DNA of 26,907 bases from Clostridia bacterium. GTDB taxonomy: Bacteria > Bacillota > Dehalobacteriia > UBA4068. How positions within the stretch are numbered: position 1 is the first letter of the stretch; each line of letters begins with the position of its first letter. This document shows, piece by piece, positions 4,225-25,785 of this stretch. The stretch lies in assembly GCA_012515255.1 (NCBI GenBank), contig JAAYYR010000058.1, forward strand, positions 1 through 26,907. The letters run 5' to 3'. The position numbers were made by a program, and so were the translations under genes. A model generated the notes under the pieces. That model searched no databases and was not told the origin of the DNA. It saw only the letters and a list, made by a program, of their open reading frames with translations.

Positions 4225-4270
4225 GGCCATATAAAAACGGCTCCCTCAAGGGAGCCGTTTTTATATGGCC
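4225..4270. terminator. Intrinsic terminator (symmetrical, 21-bp perfect stem)
   Basis: GGCCATATAAAAACGGCTCCC-TCAA-GGGAGCCGTTTTTATATGGCC, 30 nt after the lipoprotein stop. Confidence 0.88.
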
Positions 4271-4412
4271 ATTTTCTTGTCCCTTGCCATATCCTTGTCC
4301 CCTCCTCGCTTCTGCCCCTTGCCTGCTTTGCCATGCCCGCCCCTGTACTCATACCCTTTGCCTTGTCTCATGGCCGTGCATATCAACAAACGAAAAAAGT
4401 TTTATATACCTC

Positions 4413-12779: not shown

Positions 12780-12908
12780 TGTTACCTCTTTCGCACATCA
12801 GGGGATGGGGCGGCCGTTACGCCTCACATAGGAGCAAGGGACGGCCCGCCGGGGTAAAGCCCGGGCTGCGCGGCGAAACAGCCGCGCGGTCCGGGCATCA
12901 TTATAAAC

Positions 12909-18744: not shown

Positions 18745-18775
18745 CGACAAGCCGGCGCATAAGCGCCCGGCTATG

Positions 18776-18911
18776 CCTTCTTCCATCCGGACTATACCGT
18801 CGGCTCAGGAATCGCACCTGATCTGCCGGCCTGCCAAAGGCAGGCTGCTCGCGGGCTTGTCGGCTCAAAGCCGCATCACCGCCGGTGGGGAATCGCACCC
18901 CGCCCCGAAGA
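18776..18911 (-). ncRNA. FMN riboswitch (RFN element)
   Basis: Minus strand TCTTCGGGGCGGGGTGCGATTCCCCACCGGCGGT...AGCCCGCGAGC...GCAGATCAGGTGCGATTCCTGAGCCGACGGTATAGTCCGGATGGAAGAAG carries the RFN signatures. Confidence 0.97.
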
Positions 18912-18935
18912 CAGCCTATATATTTGATCGATTAC

Positions 18936-20328: not shown

Positions 20329-20404
20329 GCGCCCGTAGCTCAGCGGATAGAGCATCCGCCTCCTAAGCGGAGGGTCGCGCGTTCAAGTCGCGCCGGGCGC
20401 GCCA
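20329..20404 (+). tRNA. tRNA-Arg(CCT)
   Basis: Acceptor GCGCCCG/CGGGCGC, D arm GCTC..GAGC, anticodon arm TCCGC-CTCCTAA-GCGGA, T loop GTTCAAG, encoded CCA; 76 nt. Confidence 0.97.
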
Positions 20405-20442: not shown

Positions 20443-20607
20443 ATGCCGGATTACAAATCGATGTACTACCACTTGGCAGGACGAGTGGCAGGGGCCATCG
20501 AAGCGTTGGAAGCGATTACCGAAACACTCAAGCAGGCGCAGCAGACCACGGAAGATATGTTCATGAACAGCACGGACGAGGAAGACTTGGACGATAAGCT
20601 GGAATAA
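20443..20607 (+). CDS. Small hypothetical protein (54 aa), not in the ORF track
   Basis: MPDYKSMYYHLAGRVAGAIEALEAITETLKQAQQTTEDMFMNSTDEEDLDDKLE*; GGGGG before the ATG; helical with an acidic tail; resembles small clostridial MPDYK(K)MY proteins from memory. Confidence 0.6.
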   Translation: MPDYKSMYYHLAGRVAGAIEALEAITETLKQAQQTTEDMFMNSTDEEDLDDKLE

Positions 20608-20662: not shown

Positions 20663-20896
20663 ATGCCTTATATCGCAATTAAATCATTTCCCAAAGATCA
20701 GGCGACCAAGGAATTGGTTGTTGAGAAAATTAATGAGATTTTTTTAGAGCTTTGGGGCTGCCCACAGGAAGCAATCACCGTTTCAATTGAAGATGTGGCG
20801 CCTGAAGATTGGCATGAAAAAGTCGTCAAGCCTGAGATTGAGCCTAAAAAAGAAAATATGATGATCCTGTCCGGTAAAAAATGCTATAAATCATGA
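20663..20896 (+). CDS. 4-oxalocrotonate tautomerase-family protein
   Basis: N-terminal Met-Pro (Pro1 catalytic base), MPYIAIKSFPK...ITVSIEDVAPEDW; RBS AGGAGG. Confidence 0.8.
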   Translation: MPYIAIKSFPKDQATKELVVEKINEIFLELWGCPQEAITVSIEDVAPEDWHEKVVKPEIEPKKENMMILSGKKCYKS

Positions 20897-21035
20897 TAAT
20901 ATAATCTGTATCTGAAAATATACCTTTTCCGCCATCTTTACCAATGGCGCGGATGAAGCCCCGGCAAAAATCTCTATTGCCCGGCAACCGGTGATTTTAC
21001 GGCTGCCTCATCGCTCCTGGTTTTAGCCAAAAGCC

Positions 21036-21140
21036 AAGGCGGCAATGTCTTTTTGCTTTACAGAGCCAGACCGCCACATTCATGCTTACCGCGCCCTCTT
21101 AATGCGCTTTGACCAGCGTGTTCAGGGGCGCTGCCGCCTT
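21036..21140 (+). ncRNA. Structured 5' leader of the polyamine operon (candidate cis-regulatory RNA, possibly ldcC motif)
   Basis: 9-bp perfect P1 AAGGCGGCA(21036-21044)/TGCCGCCTT(21132-21140) encloses two branched hairpins. Family assignment is by context only. Confidence 0.55.
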
Positions 21141-21186
21141 AACGTAATTTTCATCCGGGATTACCGCCCGGTACAGAAGGAGAAAA

Positions 21187-22638
21187 ATGCCTGATCTTGC
21201 GCAAGAAAATGCGCCTTTATATGAAGCGCTGGAGCAATTCCGGCAGCGCCGGGTCGTGCCTTTCGACGTACCGGGCCATAAACGCGGCCGCGGCAATCCG
21301 GAGCTGGTCAAATTCCTCGGCGAAAAATGCCTGAGCATCGACGTCAATTCGATGAAGCCGCTCGATAATCTCGGCCACCCCAGCTCGGTGATTCTCGAAG
21401 CGGAGCAGCTGGCGGCCGAGGCCTTCGGCGCCGCCCACGCTTATTTCATCGTCGGCGGCACTACAGCCGCTGTACAGAGCATGCTGCTCTATGCCTGCCG
21501 CGAGGGCGAAAAAATCATCCTGCCGCGCAATGTGCATCAAAGCGTGGTCAATACTTTGGTGCTCTCCGGCGCTATGCCGATCTATGTCGACCCGGAGGTG
21601 GAGCCGCGGCTCGGCATTCCGCTTGGCATGAGATTGGCCGCTGTGGAGGCCGCCATCGCCGCGCATCCCGACGCCAAGGCGGTGCTGGTCAATAACCCCA
21701 CATATTATGGCGTTTGCTCGCGGATCGAGGCCATAGCCGAGCTGGCGCATCGCCATAATATGCTGCTGCTTGCCGATGAGGCGCATGGCGCGCATTTCTA
21801 CTTCGGCGCGGATTTTCCGGCGGCGGCAATGGCGGCCGGCGCTGATCTGGCCGCGGTGAGCATGCATAAGTCGGGCGGCAGCCTTACCCAAAGCTCGATC
21901 CTGCTGGCCGGGGCGGCTATTGATGCGGGCGGCCTGCGCCAGACGATCAACCTCACCCAAACCACCAGCGCCTCTTATCTGCTACTTGCGAGCCTGGATC
22001 TCTCACGGCGCAACCTGGCCTTAAACGGCCGCGAAATCTTCGCCAAGGTGCGGCAGCTTTCAGCCTACGCCAGGGATGAAATCAATCTGATCGGCGGTTA
22101 TGTGGCTTATGGCAAAGAGCTGATCAATCATGACAGCATCTATGATTTCGACGATACCAAGCTCTCGGTTTTTACCCTCGATATCGGCCTGGCCGGTATT
22201 GAGGTCTATGATTTATTGCGCGATGAATACGATATCCAGGCCGAATTCGGCGATGTGGGCAATATGCTCGCCTATATCTCGATCGGCGACCGGCCGCGCG
22301 ATATCGAGCGCCTCGTCAACGCGCTCGCGGAGATCAAGCGACGCTTTGGCCGCACCCCGATCGCCCTGCCGGTACAGGCCTATCCCGAGCCGCGGCTTAT
22401 GCTCTCGCCGCAGCAGGCCTATTTCGCGGCCAAGACGACCCTGCCCATCAGCGCGTCGGCCGGCCGGGTCAGCGGCGAATCTGTGCTCTGTTATCCGCCC
22501 GGCATCCCGGTGCTGGCGCCGGGAGAAATGATTACGCCGGAGATTATCGACTATATCCGCTTCAGCAAGGACAAGGGCTGCCTGGTCACCGGCACCCGCG
22601 ACCAGGCGGTCGAATTGATTGACGTGGTGGAGGAGTAG
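21187..22638 (+). CDS. PLP-dependent Orn/Lys/Arg decarboxylase (class I fold), probably arginine decarboxylase
   Basis: PFDVPGHKRG, GGTTAAVQ, PRNVHQS, DEAHG, SMHKS (PLP Lys), TTSASYLL, YPPGIP; context with agmatinase suggests Arg as substrate. Confidence 0.92.
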   Translation: MPDLAQENAPLYEALEQFRQRRVVPFDVPGHKRGRGNPELVKFLGEKCLSIDVNSMKPLDNLGHPSSVILEAEQLAAEAFGAAHAYFIVGGTTAAVQSMLLYACREGEKIILPRNVHQSVVNTLVLSGAMPIYVDPEVEPRLGIPLGMRLAAVEAAIAAHPDAKAVLVNNPTYYGVCSRIEAIAELAHRHNMLLLADEAHGAHFYFGADFPAAAMAAGADLAAVSMHKSGGSLTQSSILLAGAAIDAGGLRQTINLTQTTSASYLLLASLDLSRRNLALNGREIFAKVRQLSAYARDEINLIGGYVAYGKELINHDSIYDFDDTKLSVFTLDIGLAGIEVYDLLRDEYDIQAEFGDVGNMLAYISIGDRPRDIERLVNALAEIKRRFGRTPIALPVQAYPEPRLMLSPQQAYFAAKTTLPISASAGRVSGESVLCYPPGIPVLAPGEMITPEIIDYIRFSKDKGCLVTGTRDQAVELIDVVEE

Positions 22639-22641
22639 CCT

Positions 22642-23496
22642 ATGGAATTATGGTTCAGCGAGATGCATACCGAAAATGTCCGCTTTTCGATCAAGGTTGA
22701 CCGCCAGCTTTATTCGGGGCAAAGCGAATTTCAGCGCATCGATATCTTTGATTCGCCGGAATTCGGCCGCTTCCTCACCCTGGACGGCTTTATGATGCTG
22801 ACGGAAAAAGATGAGTTTATCTACCATGAGATGATCGCCCATGTACCGATGGCCGTGCATCCCCAGGCCAAAAATGTGCTGCTGGTCGGCGCGGGCGACG
22901 GCGGCGTGGCGCGGGAAATCGCCCGCTATGATACGGTGAAAAATATCGACGTAGCGGAGATAGACCCGGAGGTGGTGCGCGTCTGCCGCGAGTACCTGCC
23001 GCAGACCGCGCTAAGCTTCGACGACCCGCGCGTGCATGTTTACTATGAGGACGGCATCAGGTTTATCCGCCGCTGCGCTAATCAATACGATTTGATCATC
23101 ATCGATTCTACCGATCCTTTCGGCCCCGGAGAGAGCCTGTTCACCAAAGAGTTCTACGGCAGCTGTCATCAGGCCTTAAAAGAAGACGGCATTATGGTCA
23201 ACCAGCATGAAAGCCCCTTTTATGCCGAGGACGCTAAGGAGATGCGTCAGGCGCATAAAAAAATCGCGGCCAATTTCCCGATCAGCCTGCTTTATCAGGC
23301 GCATATCCCCACCTATCCTTCGGGACATTGGCTGTTTGGCTTCGCCGCGAAGAAATATCATCCGCTGCATGATTTCCATGCGGATAACTGGAGTAAGCTT
23401 GGCATCAAAACGAAATACTATAATCCCGGCATCCACCGGGGCGCTTTTGCTCTGCCCAGTTATGTGGAGGAGATGTTGAATGACGCCCGCTCATAA
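22642..23496 (+). CDS. speE: Polyamine aminopropyltransferase (spermidine synthase)
   Basis: LDGFMMLTEKDEFIYHEM, VGAGDGG, IIIDSTDP, IPTYPSGHW, YYNPGIH. Confidence 0.95.
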   Translation: MELWFSEMHTENVRFSIKVDRQLYSGQSEFQRIDIFDSPEFGRFLTLDGFMMLTEKDEFIYHEMIAHVPMAVHPQAKNVLLVGAGDGGVAREIARYDTVKNIDVAEIDPEVVRVCREYLPQTALSFDDPRVHVYYEDGIRFIRRCANQYDLIIIDSTDPFGPGESLFTKEFYGSCHQALKEDGIMVNQHESPFYAEDAKEMRQAHKKIAANFPISLLYQAHIPTYPSGHWLFGFAAKKYHPLHDFHADNWSKLGIKTKYYNPGIHRGAFALPSYVEEMLNDARS

Positions 23497-24337
23497 CCTG
23501 CTCACTTTTATCAATGCGGAAGCTGATTTCGCCGCCGCCCGCCTTATCATCTTTGGCGCGCCCTTCGACGCCACAGCCTCTTTCCGCCCCGGCTCCCGCT
23601 TCGCCCCTGCGGAGATACGCACTTTTTCCCAGCAGCTGGAGACTTACAGCCCTTATCAGGAGCGCGATTTGAGCGAGATCAGCGTCTGCGATATCGGCGA
23701 CCTCACGCTGGCGCATGGCAATGCCGCCGCTATGGTGGAAGCTGTGCGCGAACAGGCGGCGGCTATTTTGGCCGCCCGGAAAATTCCTTTACTGCTCGGC
23801 GGCGAGCATCTGGTAAGCTTGGGCGCGGTGCAGGCCGCGGCCGCCGCTTATCCGGATTTGCTGCTGCTGCATCTTGACGCCCATACTGATCTGCGCGACG
23901 ACTACCTCGGAGAACGGCTCTCCCATGCCACGGTGATCCGCCGCTGCCATGATATCCTGGGCGACGGCCGTATCTTCCAATTCGGCATCCGCTCCGGCGA
24001 GCGCGACGAATTTCTTTGGAGCGGCGCGGGGCATACGCATCTGCGCAAATTTGACCTTGGCGGGATCAGCGAGACTGTCGAGCAGCTCCAAGACCGGCCG
24101 CTTTATCTTACTGTTGATTTGGATATACTTGATCCATCTGTGCTGCCGGGCACCGGCACGCCGGAGGCGGGCGGGATCAGCTTCGAGGAGTTGCGCGCCG
24201 CTTTGACTATGATTTGCCGCGAGGCCAATATCATTGCCTGCGATATGACCGAGCTTTGCCCGCCTTGCGATCCGAGCGGCGCTTCGACGGCTGTCGCCGC
24301 CAAAATTTTGCGGGAAATGCTGCTGGCCCTGGGGTAA
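23480..24337 (+). CDS. speB: Agmatinase (ureohydrolase family)
   Basis: GAPFD..SFRPGSRFAP, GGEHLVS, HLDAHTDLRD, DLDILDPSVLPGTGTPEAGG. Confidence 0.93.
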   Translation: MTPAHNLLTFINAEADFAAARLIIFGAPFDATASFRPGSRFAPAEIRTFSQQLETYSPYQERDLSEISVCDIGDLTLAHGNAAAMVEAVREQAAAILAARKIPLLLGGEHLVSLGAVQAAAAAYPDLLLLHLDAHTDLRDDYLGERLSHATVIRRCHDILGDGRIFQFGIRSGERDEFLWSGAGHTHLRKFDLGGISETVEQLQDRPLYLTVDLDILDPSVLPGTGTPEAGGISFEELRAALTMICREANIIACDMTELCPPCDPSGASTAVAAKILREMLLALG

Positions 24338-24410: not shown

Positions 24411-24457
24411 GCAAGGGGGCGAGGGGGACTTCCGATTGTCCCCCTCCGCCCCCTTGC
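24411..24457. repeat. GC-rich imperfect palindrome (REP-like hairpin) in the speB-dehydrogenase spacer
   Basis: GCAAGGGGGCG-AGGGGGAC-TTCCGATT-GTCCCCCT-C-CGCCCCCTTGC: 19-bp stem with one bulge. Confidence 0.7.
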
Positions 24458-24582
24458 ATTCCCTGTACCCCCTTAAAACGGCCAAAGACTCACCGCCTTT
24501 GGAATCCGCATCAGCGTAGTATACCATTTTCGGTTAAATATAAGCATGGCTCTTACACCACTGCCAGGCGAAAGGAGAAAAA

Positions 24583-25785
24583 ATGGCAAAAGCCCTGATC
24601 ATCGGCTGCGGCGGCGTGGCATCCGTCGCCATTCACAAATGCTGCCAAAACAGCGCAATATTCACTGATATCTGCATTGCCTCGCGCACGGTGGAAAAAT
24701 GCGACGCCCTGGCTAAAAAACTCGCGCCAACCACCAAGACCAGGATCAGCACTGCCCAAGTGGACGCCAATAATGTCGGCGAGCTGGTAGCCCTGATCGA
24801 ACAATTCCAACCTAACCTTGTGATGAATCTGGCTCTGCCCTATCAGGATTTGGCGATCATGGATGCTTGCCTTGCCACCCGCGTCAATTATCTTGATACC
24901 GCCAATTATGAGCCGGAGGATGAGGCCAAGTTCGAATACAGCTGGCAGTGGGCCTACCGCGAGCGTTTCCGTAAGGCGGGCATCACGGCGCTGCTCGGCA
25001 GCGGCTTTGACCCGGGCGTGACCGGCGTATTCGCCGCTTATGCCCAAAAGCATTATTTCGATACCATCGAGTATATCGATATCCTTGACTGCAATGCCGG
25101 CGATCATGGCTATCCCTTTGCCACCAATTTTAACCCGGAGATCAATATCCGCGAAGTAACGGCCAAAGGCAGCTACTGGGAGGGCGGCCATTGGGTCGAA
25201 ACAGAGCCGCTCGCCATCAAACGCGTCTACGATTTCCCGCAAATCGGCAATAAAGATATGTATTTGCTGCATCATGAGGAACTGGAATCGTTGGCCCTGA
25301 ATATCCGCGGCATCAAGCGCATCCGCTTTTTCATGACCTTTGGCGAAAGCTATCTGACTCATTTGCGCTGCCTGCAGAATGTGGGCATGACCTCGATCAC
25401 GCCCATCATATTCGAGGGGCGCCCCATCATCCCGCTGCAATTCCTAAAGGCGGTGCTGCCCGACCCCTCCTCGCTCGGCCCGCGCACCAAGGGCAAGACC
25501 AATATCGGCTGCATTTTCCAAGGTCTGAAGGACGGTCGGCCGCGCAGCTATTATGTCTACAATGTCTGCGATCATGAGGCCTGCTATCGCGAGGTTGGCT
25601 CGCAGGCGGTGGCCTATACCACCGGCGTGCCGGCGATGATCGGCGCTTCCCTGCTGATGAGCGGCATATGGAGCGGCCCCGGCGTATTCAATATCGAGGA
25701 ATTCGATCCCGACCCCTTCATGGCGGCCTTAAACAAATGGGGCCTGCCCTGGGTAGAGGATTTCGACCCCATTTTAGTAGATTAA
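24583..25785 (+). CDS. Saccharopine dehydrogenase-family protein, carboxy(nor)spermidine dehydrogenase (CASDH)
   Basis: Rossmann IIGCGGVA, YLDTANYEP, GSGFDPGVT, FATNFNPEINIRE, QAVAYTTGVPAM; adjacent to nspC. Confidence 0.92.
   Translation: MAKALIIGCGGVASVAIHKCCQNSAIFTDICIASRTVEKCDALAKKLAPTTKTRISTAQVDANNVGELVALIEQFQPNLVMNLALPYQDLAIMDACLATRVNYLDTANYEPEDEAKFEYSWQWAYRERFRKAGITALLGSGFDPGVTGVFAAYAQKHYFDTIEYIDILDCNAGDHGYPFATNFNPEINIREVTAKGSYWEGGHWVETEPLAIKRVYDFPQIGNKDMYLLHHEELESLALNIRGIKRIRFFMTFGESYLTHLRCLQNVGMTSITPIIFEGRPIIPLQFLKAVLPDPSSLGPRTKGKTNIGCIFQGLKDGRPRSYYVYNVCDHEACYREVGSQAVAYTTGVPAMIGASLLMSGIWSGPGVFNIEEFDPDPFMAALNKWGLPWVEDFDPILVD

Follow-up and report, generated by a model that had tools for sequence, protein, structure and literature searches.

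A lineage-restricted leader with one conserved hairpin upstream of a polyamine operon in a Clostridia bacterium

Introduction

Structural stem-loops in untranslated and intercistronic regions of mRNA stabilise or delimit segments of the message. In the polyamine operons of Bacillota, more elaborate RNA elements have been described. The ldcC RNA, listed in Rfam as RF02440, 'SpF59_sRNA (ldcC RNA)', lies in the 5' UTR of Orn/Lys/Arg decarboxylase genes (Weinberg et al. 2017, PMC5737381). The spermidine riboswitch is a rare variant of SAM-I with a terminator platform (Salvail et al. 2023, PMC10853860). It likewise controls polyamine genes (speE, speB and ldcC) from the leader, and it couples a four-stem SAM-I aptamer to a terminator/antiterminator (PMC10853860).

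We examined the leader of a polyamine operon in a metagenome-assembled genome of a Clostridia bacterium (GCA_012515255.1; 1.28 Mb, 73.5% complete). The window, meaning the whole stretch of contig JAAYYR010000058.1 that was analysed, is 26,907 nt long. A first-pass annotation of the window, made from the letters alone, had described a riboswitch-like three-way junction of stems P1, P2 and P3 upstream of the operon and had proposed it as a candidate polyamine- or arginine-responsive element, pointing to an ldcC motif that occurs ahead of polyamine decarboxylase genes. That motif does exist upstream of such genes (RF02440; PMC5737381), and the window leader was compared both with it and with the leaders of the closest relatives that could be found.

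Results

Gene context of the leader

The genes 3' of the leader form a polyamine operon, as had been claimed: a SpeA-type decarboxylase, speE, speB and members of the carboxyspermidine dehydrogenase and carboxyspermidine decarboxylase families were identified downstream, and the operon can therefore be taken as real (Table 1). Upstream, a gap of 290 nt on the + strand separates the speA start from a 77-aa tautomerase-family ORF (20663-20896). Scans of the + strand of this gap (20897-21186) found neither a promoter consensus nor a terminator-like site, that is, a hairpin followed by a U-tract; the latter result bears out the earlier statement that the leader has no U-tract terminator. Perfect TTGACA-17-TATAAT promoters are present elsewhere in the organism, and the missing consensus promoter in the speA leader is compatible with transcription reading in from upstream. 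One RNA-library contig covers 20850-20962 and stops short of P3; DNA carry-over is possible in that library. Public sequencing runs gave only 151-nt contigs, which were identical to the window and showed no variants.

Table 1. Coordinates of the leader, its predicted elements and the genes of the operon
Feature	Coordinates	Strand	Evidence or remark
Untranslated leader	20897-21186	+	From the stop of the tautomerase-family ORF to the speA ATG; ORFs and Pfam
P1 5' strand, 9 nt	21036-21044	+	Pairs with 21132-21140; first 5 nt alone kept in L105
P2 hairpin as folded, GUCU/AGAC and GCUU/GAGC	21047-21071	+	Present in this genome only; 5' half absent from L105
C-rich single-stranded stretch 5' of P3	21066-21090	+	25/25 identical in L105, 17/23 in L099
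Six-codon mini-ORF MLTAPS-stop (MFIAPS-stop in L099)	21083-21103	+	Ends inside the P3 5' strand; without SD
P3 imperfect hairpin	21091-21131	+	16 pairs including two G.U, bulged U21097, variable loop
P1 3' strand	21132-21140	+	9/9 identical in L105, 7/9 in L099
CCGGG/CCCGG hairpin, 5 bp	21155-21171	+	Not significant; not conserved in L099
speA Shine-Dalgarno (SD), GAAGGAG	21176-21182	+	Read in the sequence; ATG at 21187
speA-type PLP-dependent Orn/Lys/Arg decarboxylase, 483 aa	21187-22638	+	Pfam PF01276 and PF03711
speE, spermidine synthase	22642-23496	+	Pfam
speB, agmatinase family	23480-24337	+	Pfam
Saccharopine-dehydrogenase-family gene, carboxyspermidine dehydrogenase type	24583-25785	+	Pfam
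Orn/DAP/Arg decarboxylase-family gene, carboxyspermidine decarboxylase type	25804 onward, cut by the window end	+	Pfam

A tRNA-Arg gene (anticodon CCT; 20329-20404, + strand) stands between an isochorismatase-family gene and the tautomerase/speA block. Because the polyamine operon is missing at this place both in the congeners and in the isochorismatase-linked relatives, it may have been acquired beside the tRNA. A 54-codon ORF with the ribosome-binding site AAGGGGG (20444-20607, +), shorter than the length cut-off of the ORF list, lies between the tRNA and the tautomerase gene. Farther upstream, on the - strand, an FMN riboswitch (113.9 bits; 18771-18916) precedes an ECF-type transporter S-component gene; it is served by a perfect TTGACA-17-TATAAT promoter at 18964-18936 and has a canonical terminator at 18745-18724.

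Predicted fold of the leader

The MFE fold of the leader reproduced the three-way shape, with P1, part of P2 and P3. P1 is the perfect 9-bp helix that had been described, joining 21036-21044 to 21132-21140, and both sequence and fold place P3 directly on top of it, the last base of P3 abutting 21132. The earlier account of P2 held in part: the GTCT/AGAC and GCUU/GAGC pairings appear in the MFE fold, but the ATGT/ACAT pairing excludes GTCT/AGAC, as both need G21047 and T21048. P3 carries a U/C mismatch at 21100/21123 and a 6-nt loop at 21109-21114. The small hairpin reported just before the SD is present, but it folds no better than shuffled sequences (z -1.0) and is lost in L099, the contig of the more distant of the two relatives described below.

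Fold z-scores were -3.35 for the 105-nt junction and -2.93 for a 166-nt stretch, and P3 alone reached about -24 kcal/mol (z -4.0). When all 47-nt windows on both strands of the 27-kb window were folded, about 33 separate places were found at -24 kcal/mol or better. The genome is GC-rich, and stability by itself is thus unremarkable here. The two most stable 47-nt hairpins of the window, at 12859-12905 (+) and 4225-4271 (+), reach about -40 kcal/mol; the one at 4225-4271 is terminator-like, with a U-rich tail.

Relatives of the leader

A protein search yielded only two close lineages, P0121 (SpeA 94% identical; contig L105) and P0003 (86%; contig L099), and in the latter the JGI annotation of SpeA is arginine decarboxylase. 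The leader comparison covers three metagenomic lineages: the window, L105 and L099. L105 carries the whole leader. L099 begins inside the region equivalent to P2 and so has no P1 5' strand.

Searches for further copies were negative throughout. A protein scan of genome contigs found no SpeA above 71% identity, and blastn with the leader found no second copy, whether in its own genome, among 60 relatives or in the complete sets of 31 family and 51 order genomes. Four congeners gave no blastn match to the leader and have no speA orthologue at all. A covariance model of P3 with its flanks, run over 99 ortholog loci and 101 genomes, recovered only its three input sequences, everything else scoring at E>0.2, and a pattern scan of JGI metagenomes returned only the L099 contig. 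A 33-nt match to the leader in G005 was dismissed as chance, since it is part of a 441-aa ORF.

The three-way junction is not conserved

The riboswitch-like junction did not survive comparison with the nearest relative. L105 lacks 16 nt, a gap that takes away the last four bases of the P1 5' strand together with the 5' half of P2. It retains five of the nine P1 pairs and no P2, and its MFE fold keeps P3 only; the P1 3' strand is still identical at all nine positions although its partner strand is partly deleted. In L099 the P1 3' strand is altered and reads AGCAGCCUU..., and the sequence between P3 and the SD has received a 24-nt insertion, is 54% identical and has lost the small hairpin. A two-sided change was found at no pair in the compared leaders. 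P1 and P2 show neither covariation nor conservation, an outcome that the first-pass annotation had itself named as refuting its riboswitch-like reading.

Across the three lineages compared, the three-stem fold is private to this genome, and only P3 is kept in its few known relatives. Alternatively, L105 could be a decayed allele of a once-functional junction.

Other candidates within the leader were set aside. A leader peptide encoded by a 13-codon ORF at 20955 was rejected because in L105 the stop is lost and three codons are changed non-synonymously. A possible promoter immediately ahead of P3 (TTGCTT-16-CACATT) was rejected too: it is weak, and L105 has a deletion of its -35 element.

P3 is under constraint

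One stem, P3, is under selection: both relatives keep it and its flanks far better than they keep neutral sites. At four-fold degenerate speA sites the window shares 77% identity with L105 and 63% with L099. Outside the loop, the stretch 21066-21140 shows no change at any of 69 positions between the window and L105, against backgrounds for the same pair of 10% change in the leader and 23% at four-fold sites (Fisher p 0.004 against the rest of the leader; binomial probability 1.6e-8 at the four-fold rate). In the comparison with L099, the P3 stems differ at 4 of 35 positions and the four-fold sites at 81 of 221 (p 0.003).

The loop has been free to vary. Three of its six positions differ in L105, which has also gained 1 nt there, and two of six differ in L099. 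The loop was rejected as a pseudoknot partner, since it changes from lineage to lineage without a matching change elsewhere. Within the stem, L099 has one G.U pair replaced by G-C and one C-G pair replaced by U.G, while the loop-closing pair opens; over the three lineages 47 of 48 P3 pair cells remain paired, and two changes on one side only leave the pairing intact. The folding energy of P3 is about -24 kcal/mol in each lineage (z -4.0 to -4.7). The minus strand is weaker, at -20.7 kcal/mol, as expected from the G.U pairs on the + strand.

Constraint, free loop, G.U pairs and strand bias together indicate that P3 is a selected + strand RNA hairpin. Since the loop has changed in length by 1 nt, a dimeric DNA operator is a poorer explanation. 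A stem that is kept, a loop that is free and pairing that is strand-specific are what a structured cis-acting mRNA hairpin is expected to show, and P3 shows them all. The structure modelled here for P3 draws on one-sided changes, loop variability and thermodynamics in three sequences, one of them truncated.

A second hairpin, at 24412-24458 (+), lies in the 245 nt that separate speB from the gene after it. It is GC-rich and very stable (about -49 kcal/mol, z -6.9) and has no U-tract. Its counterpart in L105 (5283-5335) carries compensatory changes: the loop-closing C-G pair has become G-C, a G-C pair has become U-A, and one deletion is paired. In the 86% lineage the corresponding gap is just 28 nt long, and blastn found no repeat copies of this hairpin in the genome. 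The lack of a U-tract and the compensatory changes indicate that structural intercistronic hairpins are in use in this operon.

Known RNA families and the leaders of orthologous operons

At gathering score, Rfam models matched only the FMN riboswitch and the tRNA in the whole window. The region 20850-21260 gave nothing credible even at E<=10, RF02440 and RF00162 included. A covariance search with the ldcC and riboswitch models, the check that the first-pass annotation had itself suggested, therefore places the leader in no known family. RF02440 is absent above its cut-off from the source genome, where the best score was 19.6 bits against a cut-off of 37.2 and fell outside the leader. As positive controls, the orthologous loci L009, L011, L015 and L019 scored 63-74 bits with the same model.

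In position, the leader resembles the ldcC RNA: it belongs to the 5' UTR of a Bacillota polyamine operon that opens with an Orn/Lys/Arg decarboxylase gene (PF01276), followed by speE and speB, and orthologues of this same speA gene carry ldcC RNA. A regular expression for the ldcC core matched 11 of 93 orthologous leaders, and in four of these the Rfam model also scored above its cut-off. In L100, the closest relative found outside the lineage (SpeA 72% identical), the ldcC boxes are followed by a terminator. The window leader, by contrast, matches the ldcC RNA neither in sequence nor by covariance model and has none of the conserved bulged-hairpin boxes. The 5' box ACUUGUGAAAC and AAGAGUAG...AGACUCU are both missing, and so are the other features of the extended leader, the AAACGCAAG box and the intrinsic terminator in which the ldcC leaders read here end. 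An nhmmer profile built from 11 full-length ldcC-type leaders and run with filters off found no match at E<=100 in the leaders of the window, L105 or L099 (control 1e-39). Since orthologous operons in other genera carry the ldcC RNA and a terminator, this lineage uses another leader.

The spermidine riboswitch class was ruled out for the window leader as well, there being no match to RF00162 or any other SAM-family model at E<=10 and no terminator.

The ldcC-type leaders comprise that of L100 (2810-2980) and those of L009, L011, L015, L018, L019, L037, L043, L050, L064 and L065, and have the 5' ACUUGUGAAAC box in common. The sequence of the box recurs in the 3' strand of the terminator that follows, and the box could thus be an antiterminator, pairing with the terminator 5' strand. 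A third type of leader was found in another genus of the same family (L003, L004 and L027), about 230 nt upstream of speA. It has a TTGACT...TATAAT promoter and a long GGGGGAAA...UUUCCCC hairpin followed by UUUCUC, an attenuator-like arrangement, and contains neither an ldcC box nor P3. Downstream of the speA loci in L009 (4246-4337) and L011 (4253-4344) lie c-di-GMP-I riboswitches (77-78 bits).

Discussion

Our best reading, which taken as a whole has about an even chance of being right, is that the 290-nt region is a lineage-restricted untranslated leader with a selected hairpin, P3, that is probably a ligand-independent structural or factor-binding element. The same reading takes the leader for an ordinary lineage-specific element and not for a riboswitch, new or known, and treats P1 and P2 as unselected and dispensable. 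The selected element would consist of P3 with about 25 nt of 5' flank and about 13 nt of 3' flank. The leader would be transcribed as part of the speA mRNA, and P3 would stand between the upstream ORF and speA as an intercistronic or 5'-UTR structural hairpin, serving as an mRNA-decay barrier, a processing determinant, a site for a trans-acting factor or some combination of these. In this way it would set expression of the speA operon through decay or processing or through factor binding.

P3 resembles the structural stem-loops of other messages in being GC-rich, in having a conserved stem, a free loop and no U-tract, and in its presumed place within the operon transcript. It differs from a pure decay barrier in that its single-stranded flanks are conserved too. 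A plain decay barrier needs no such flanks, and a sequence-specific partner, whether protein, ribosome or ligand, therefore fits better. Signs of a ligand pocket were not seen in the leader in any of the three lineages: there is no conserved junction, conserved loop, pseudoknot partner or expression platform.

P3 and its flanks might instead work as a translation switch, an unlikely reading, though the main rival. The 3' flank GCCUU would pair either with AAGG of the SD or with an upstream SD-like AAGGC, and the choice between the two would be tilted by a protein or by direct action of polyamines on the bulged helix. In each of the three sequences the P1 3' strand ends in CCUU, which is able to pair with AAGG of the SD; besides P3, this 4-bp contact is the sole pairing that RNAalifold retained across them. 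AAGGC also outlasts the 16-nt deletion in L105, and the P3 flanks are perfectly conserved between that contig and the window. However, the contacts consist of only 4-5 invariant pairs, which accordingly show no covariation and are too weak to enter any MFE fold, and the SD region shows no significant structure (z -1.0, -0.6 and +1.3).

We consider it rather unlikely that P3 has no function and is a chance GC-rich hairpin, conserved through the closeness of the lineages or through local differences in mutation rate. The roughly 33 places of similar stability in the window would allow this, as would a comparison of three sequences in which no two-sided compensatory change was seen. What speaks against chance is the complete lack of change at the 69 positions, set against the 10% and 23% backgrounds, next to a loop of which half has changed; in L099, moreover, the 46 nt downstream are 54% identical and carry a 24-nt indel.

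It is doubtful that P3 and its flanks, with or without the six-codon mini-ORF, form the core of a polyamine-responsive cis-regulator of a new kind and very narrow distribution, one that has displaced in this lineage the ldcC RNA controlling the same operon in neighbouring genera.

The full P1-P2-P3 junction would on another reading be a ligand-binding aptamer, a new and very rare riboswitch of the polyamine pathway, with L105 carrying a defective allele. The first-pass annotation had likewise proposed a riboswitch-like responsive element, and we regard the aptamer reading as improbable. The MFE fold does form the junction (z about -3), the leader of a biosynthetic operon is a typical riboswitch setting, and the two changes in the P1 3' strand of L099 could be compensated on the 5' strand that lies beyond the contig end. 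Yet the nearest relative has lost P1 and P2, with P3 and its flanks perfectly conserved. Neither covariation nor an Rfam match was found, and no further copy turned up in the 51 order genomes or the 101 relatives. The leader also has no expression platform, offering neither a terminator nor a significant SD-sequestering helix, whereas the organism's own FMN riboswitch has a canonical terminator.

Stalling of a ribosome on the six-codon uORF, whose stop lies inside P3, is a further conceivable means of sensing polyamines, and a very improbable one. The MAGDIS uORF of eukaryotic AdoMetDC is an analogue for polyamine sensing by this route. All three lineages share the ATG, the frame, the closing Ala-Pro-Ser codons and the stop, and a 1-nt indel in L099 falls just outside the mini-ORF. 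Nevertheless, no SD stands upstream of it in any lineage, whereas that of speA is strong, so that the mini-ORF is probably not translated; its conserved codons coincide with the conserved P3 stem, and both substitutions inside it are non-synonymous.

Least probable of all is that the leader belongs to the ldcC RNA family as a divergent member. That RNA is what usually precedes this operon in related Bacillota; the gene context agrees, and 11 of 93 orthologous loci, L100 among them, have the ldcC core. But this reading is already refuted at the level of the tools used: RF02440 had no hit at E<=10 in the leader and none above cut-off genome-wide, the boxes and terminator are missing, and the 11-leader nhmmer profile is negative.

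The locus carries a caution, in that a convincing three-way junction in a biosynthetic leader failed on comparison with a relative whose SpeA is 94% identical. P3, at 41 nt, together with its flanks is under measurable constraint and hence gives reporter or decay assays a compact, clearly delimited object. Should P3 prove to be polyamine-responsive, it would be a third RNA solution for polyamine control, although the odds of this are at present low. The same polyamine operon is preceded in related Bacillota by quite different leaders: the ldcC RNA with a terminator, a promoter with a long hairpin and a U-rich tail, and P3. This diversity indicates that the cis-regulation of this operon turns over quickly.
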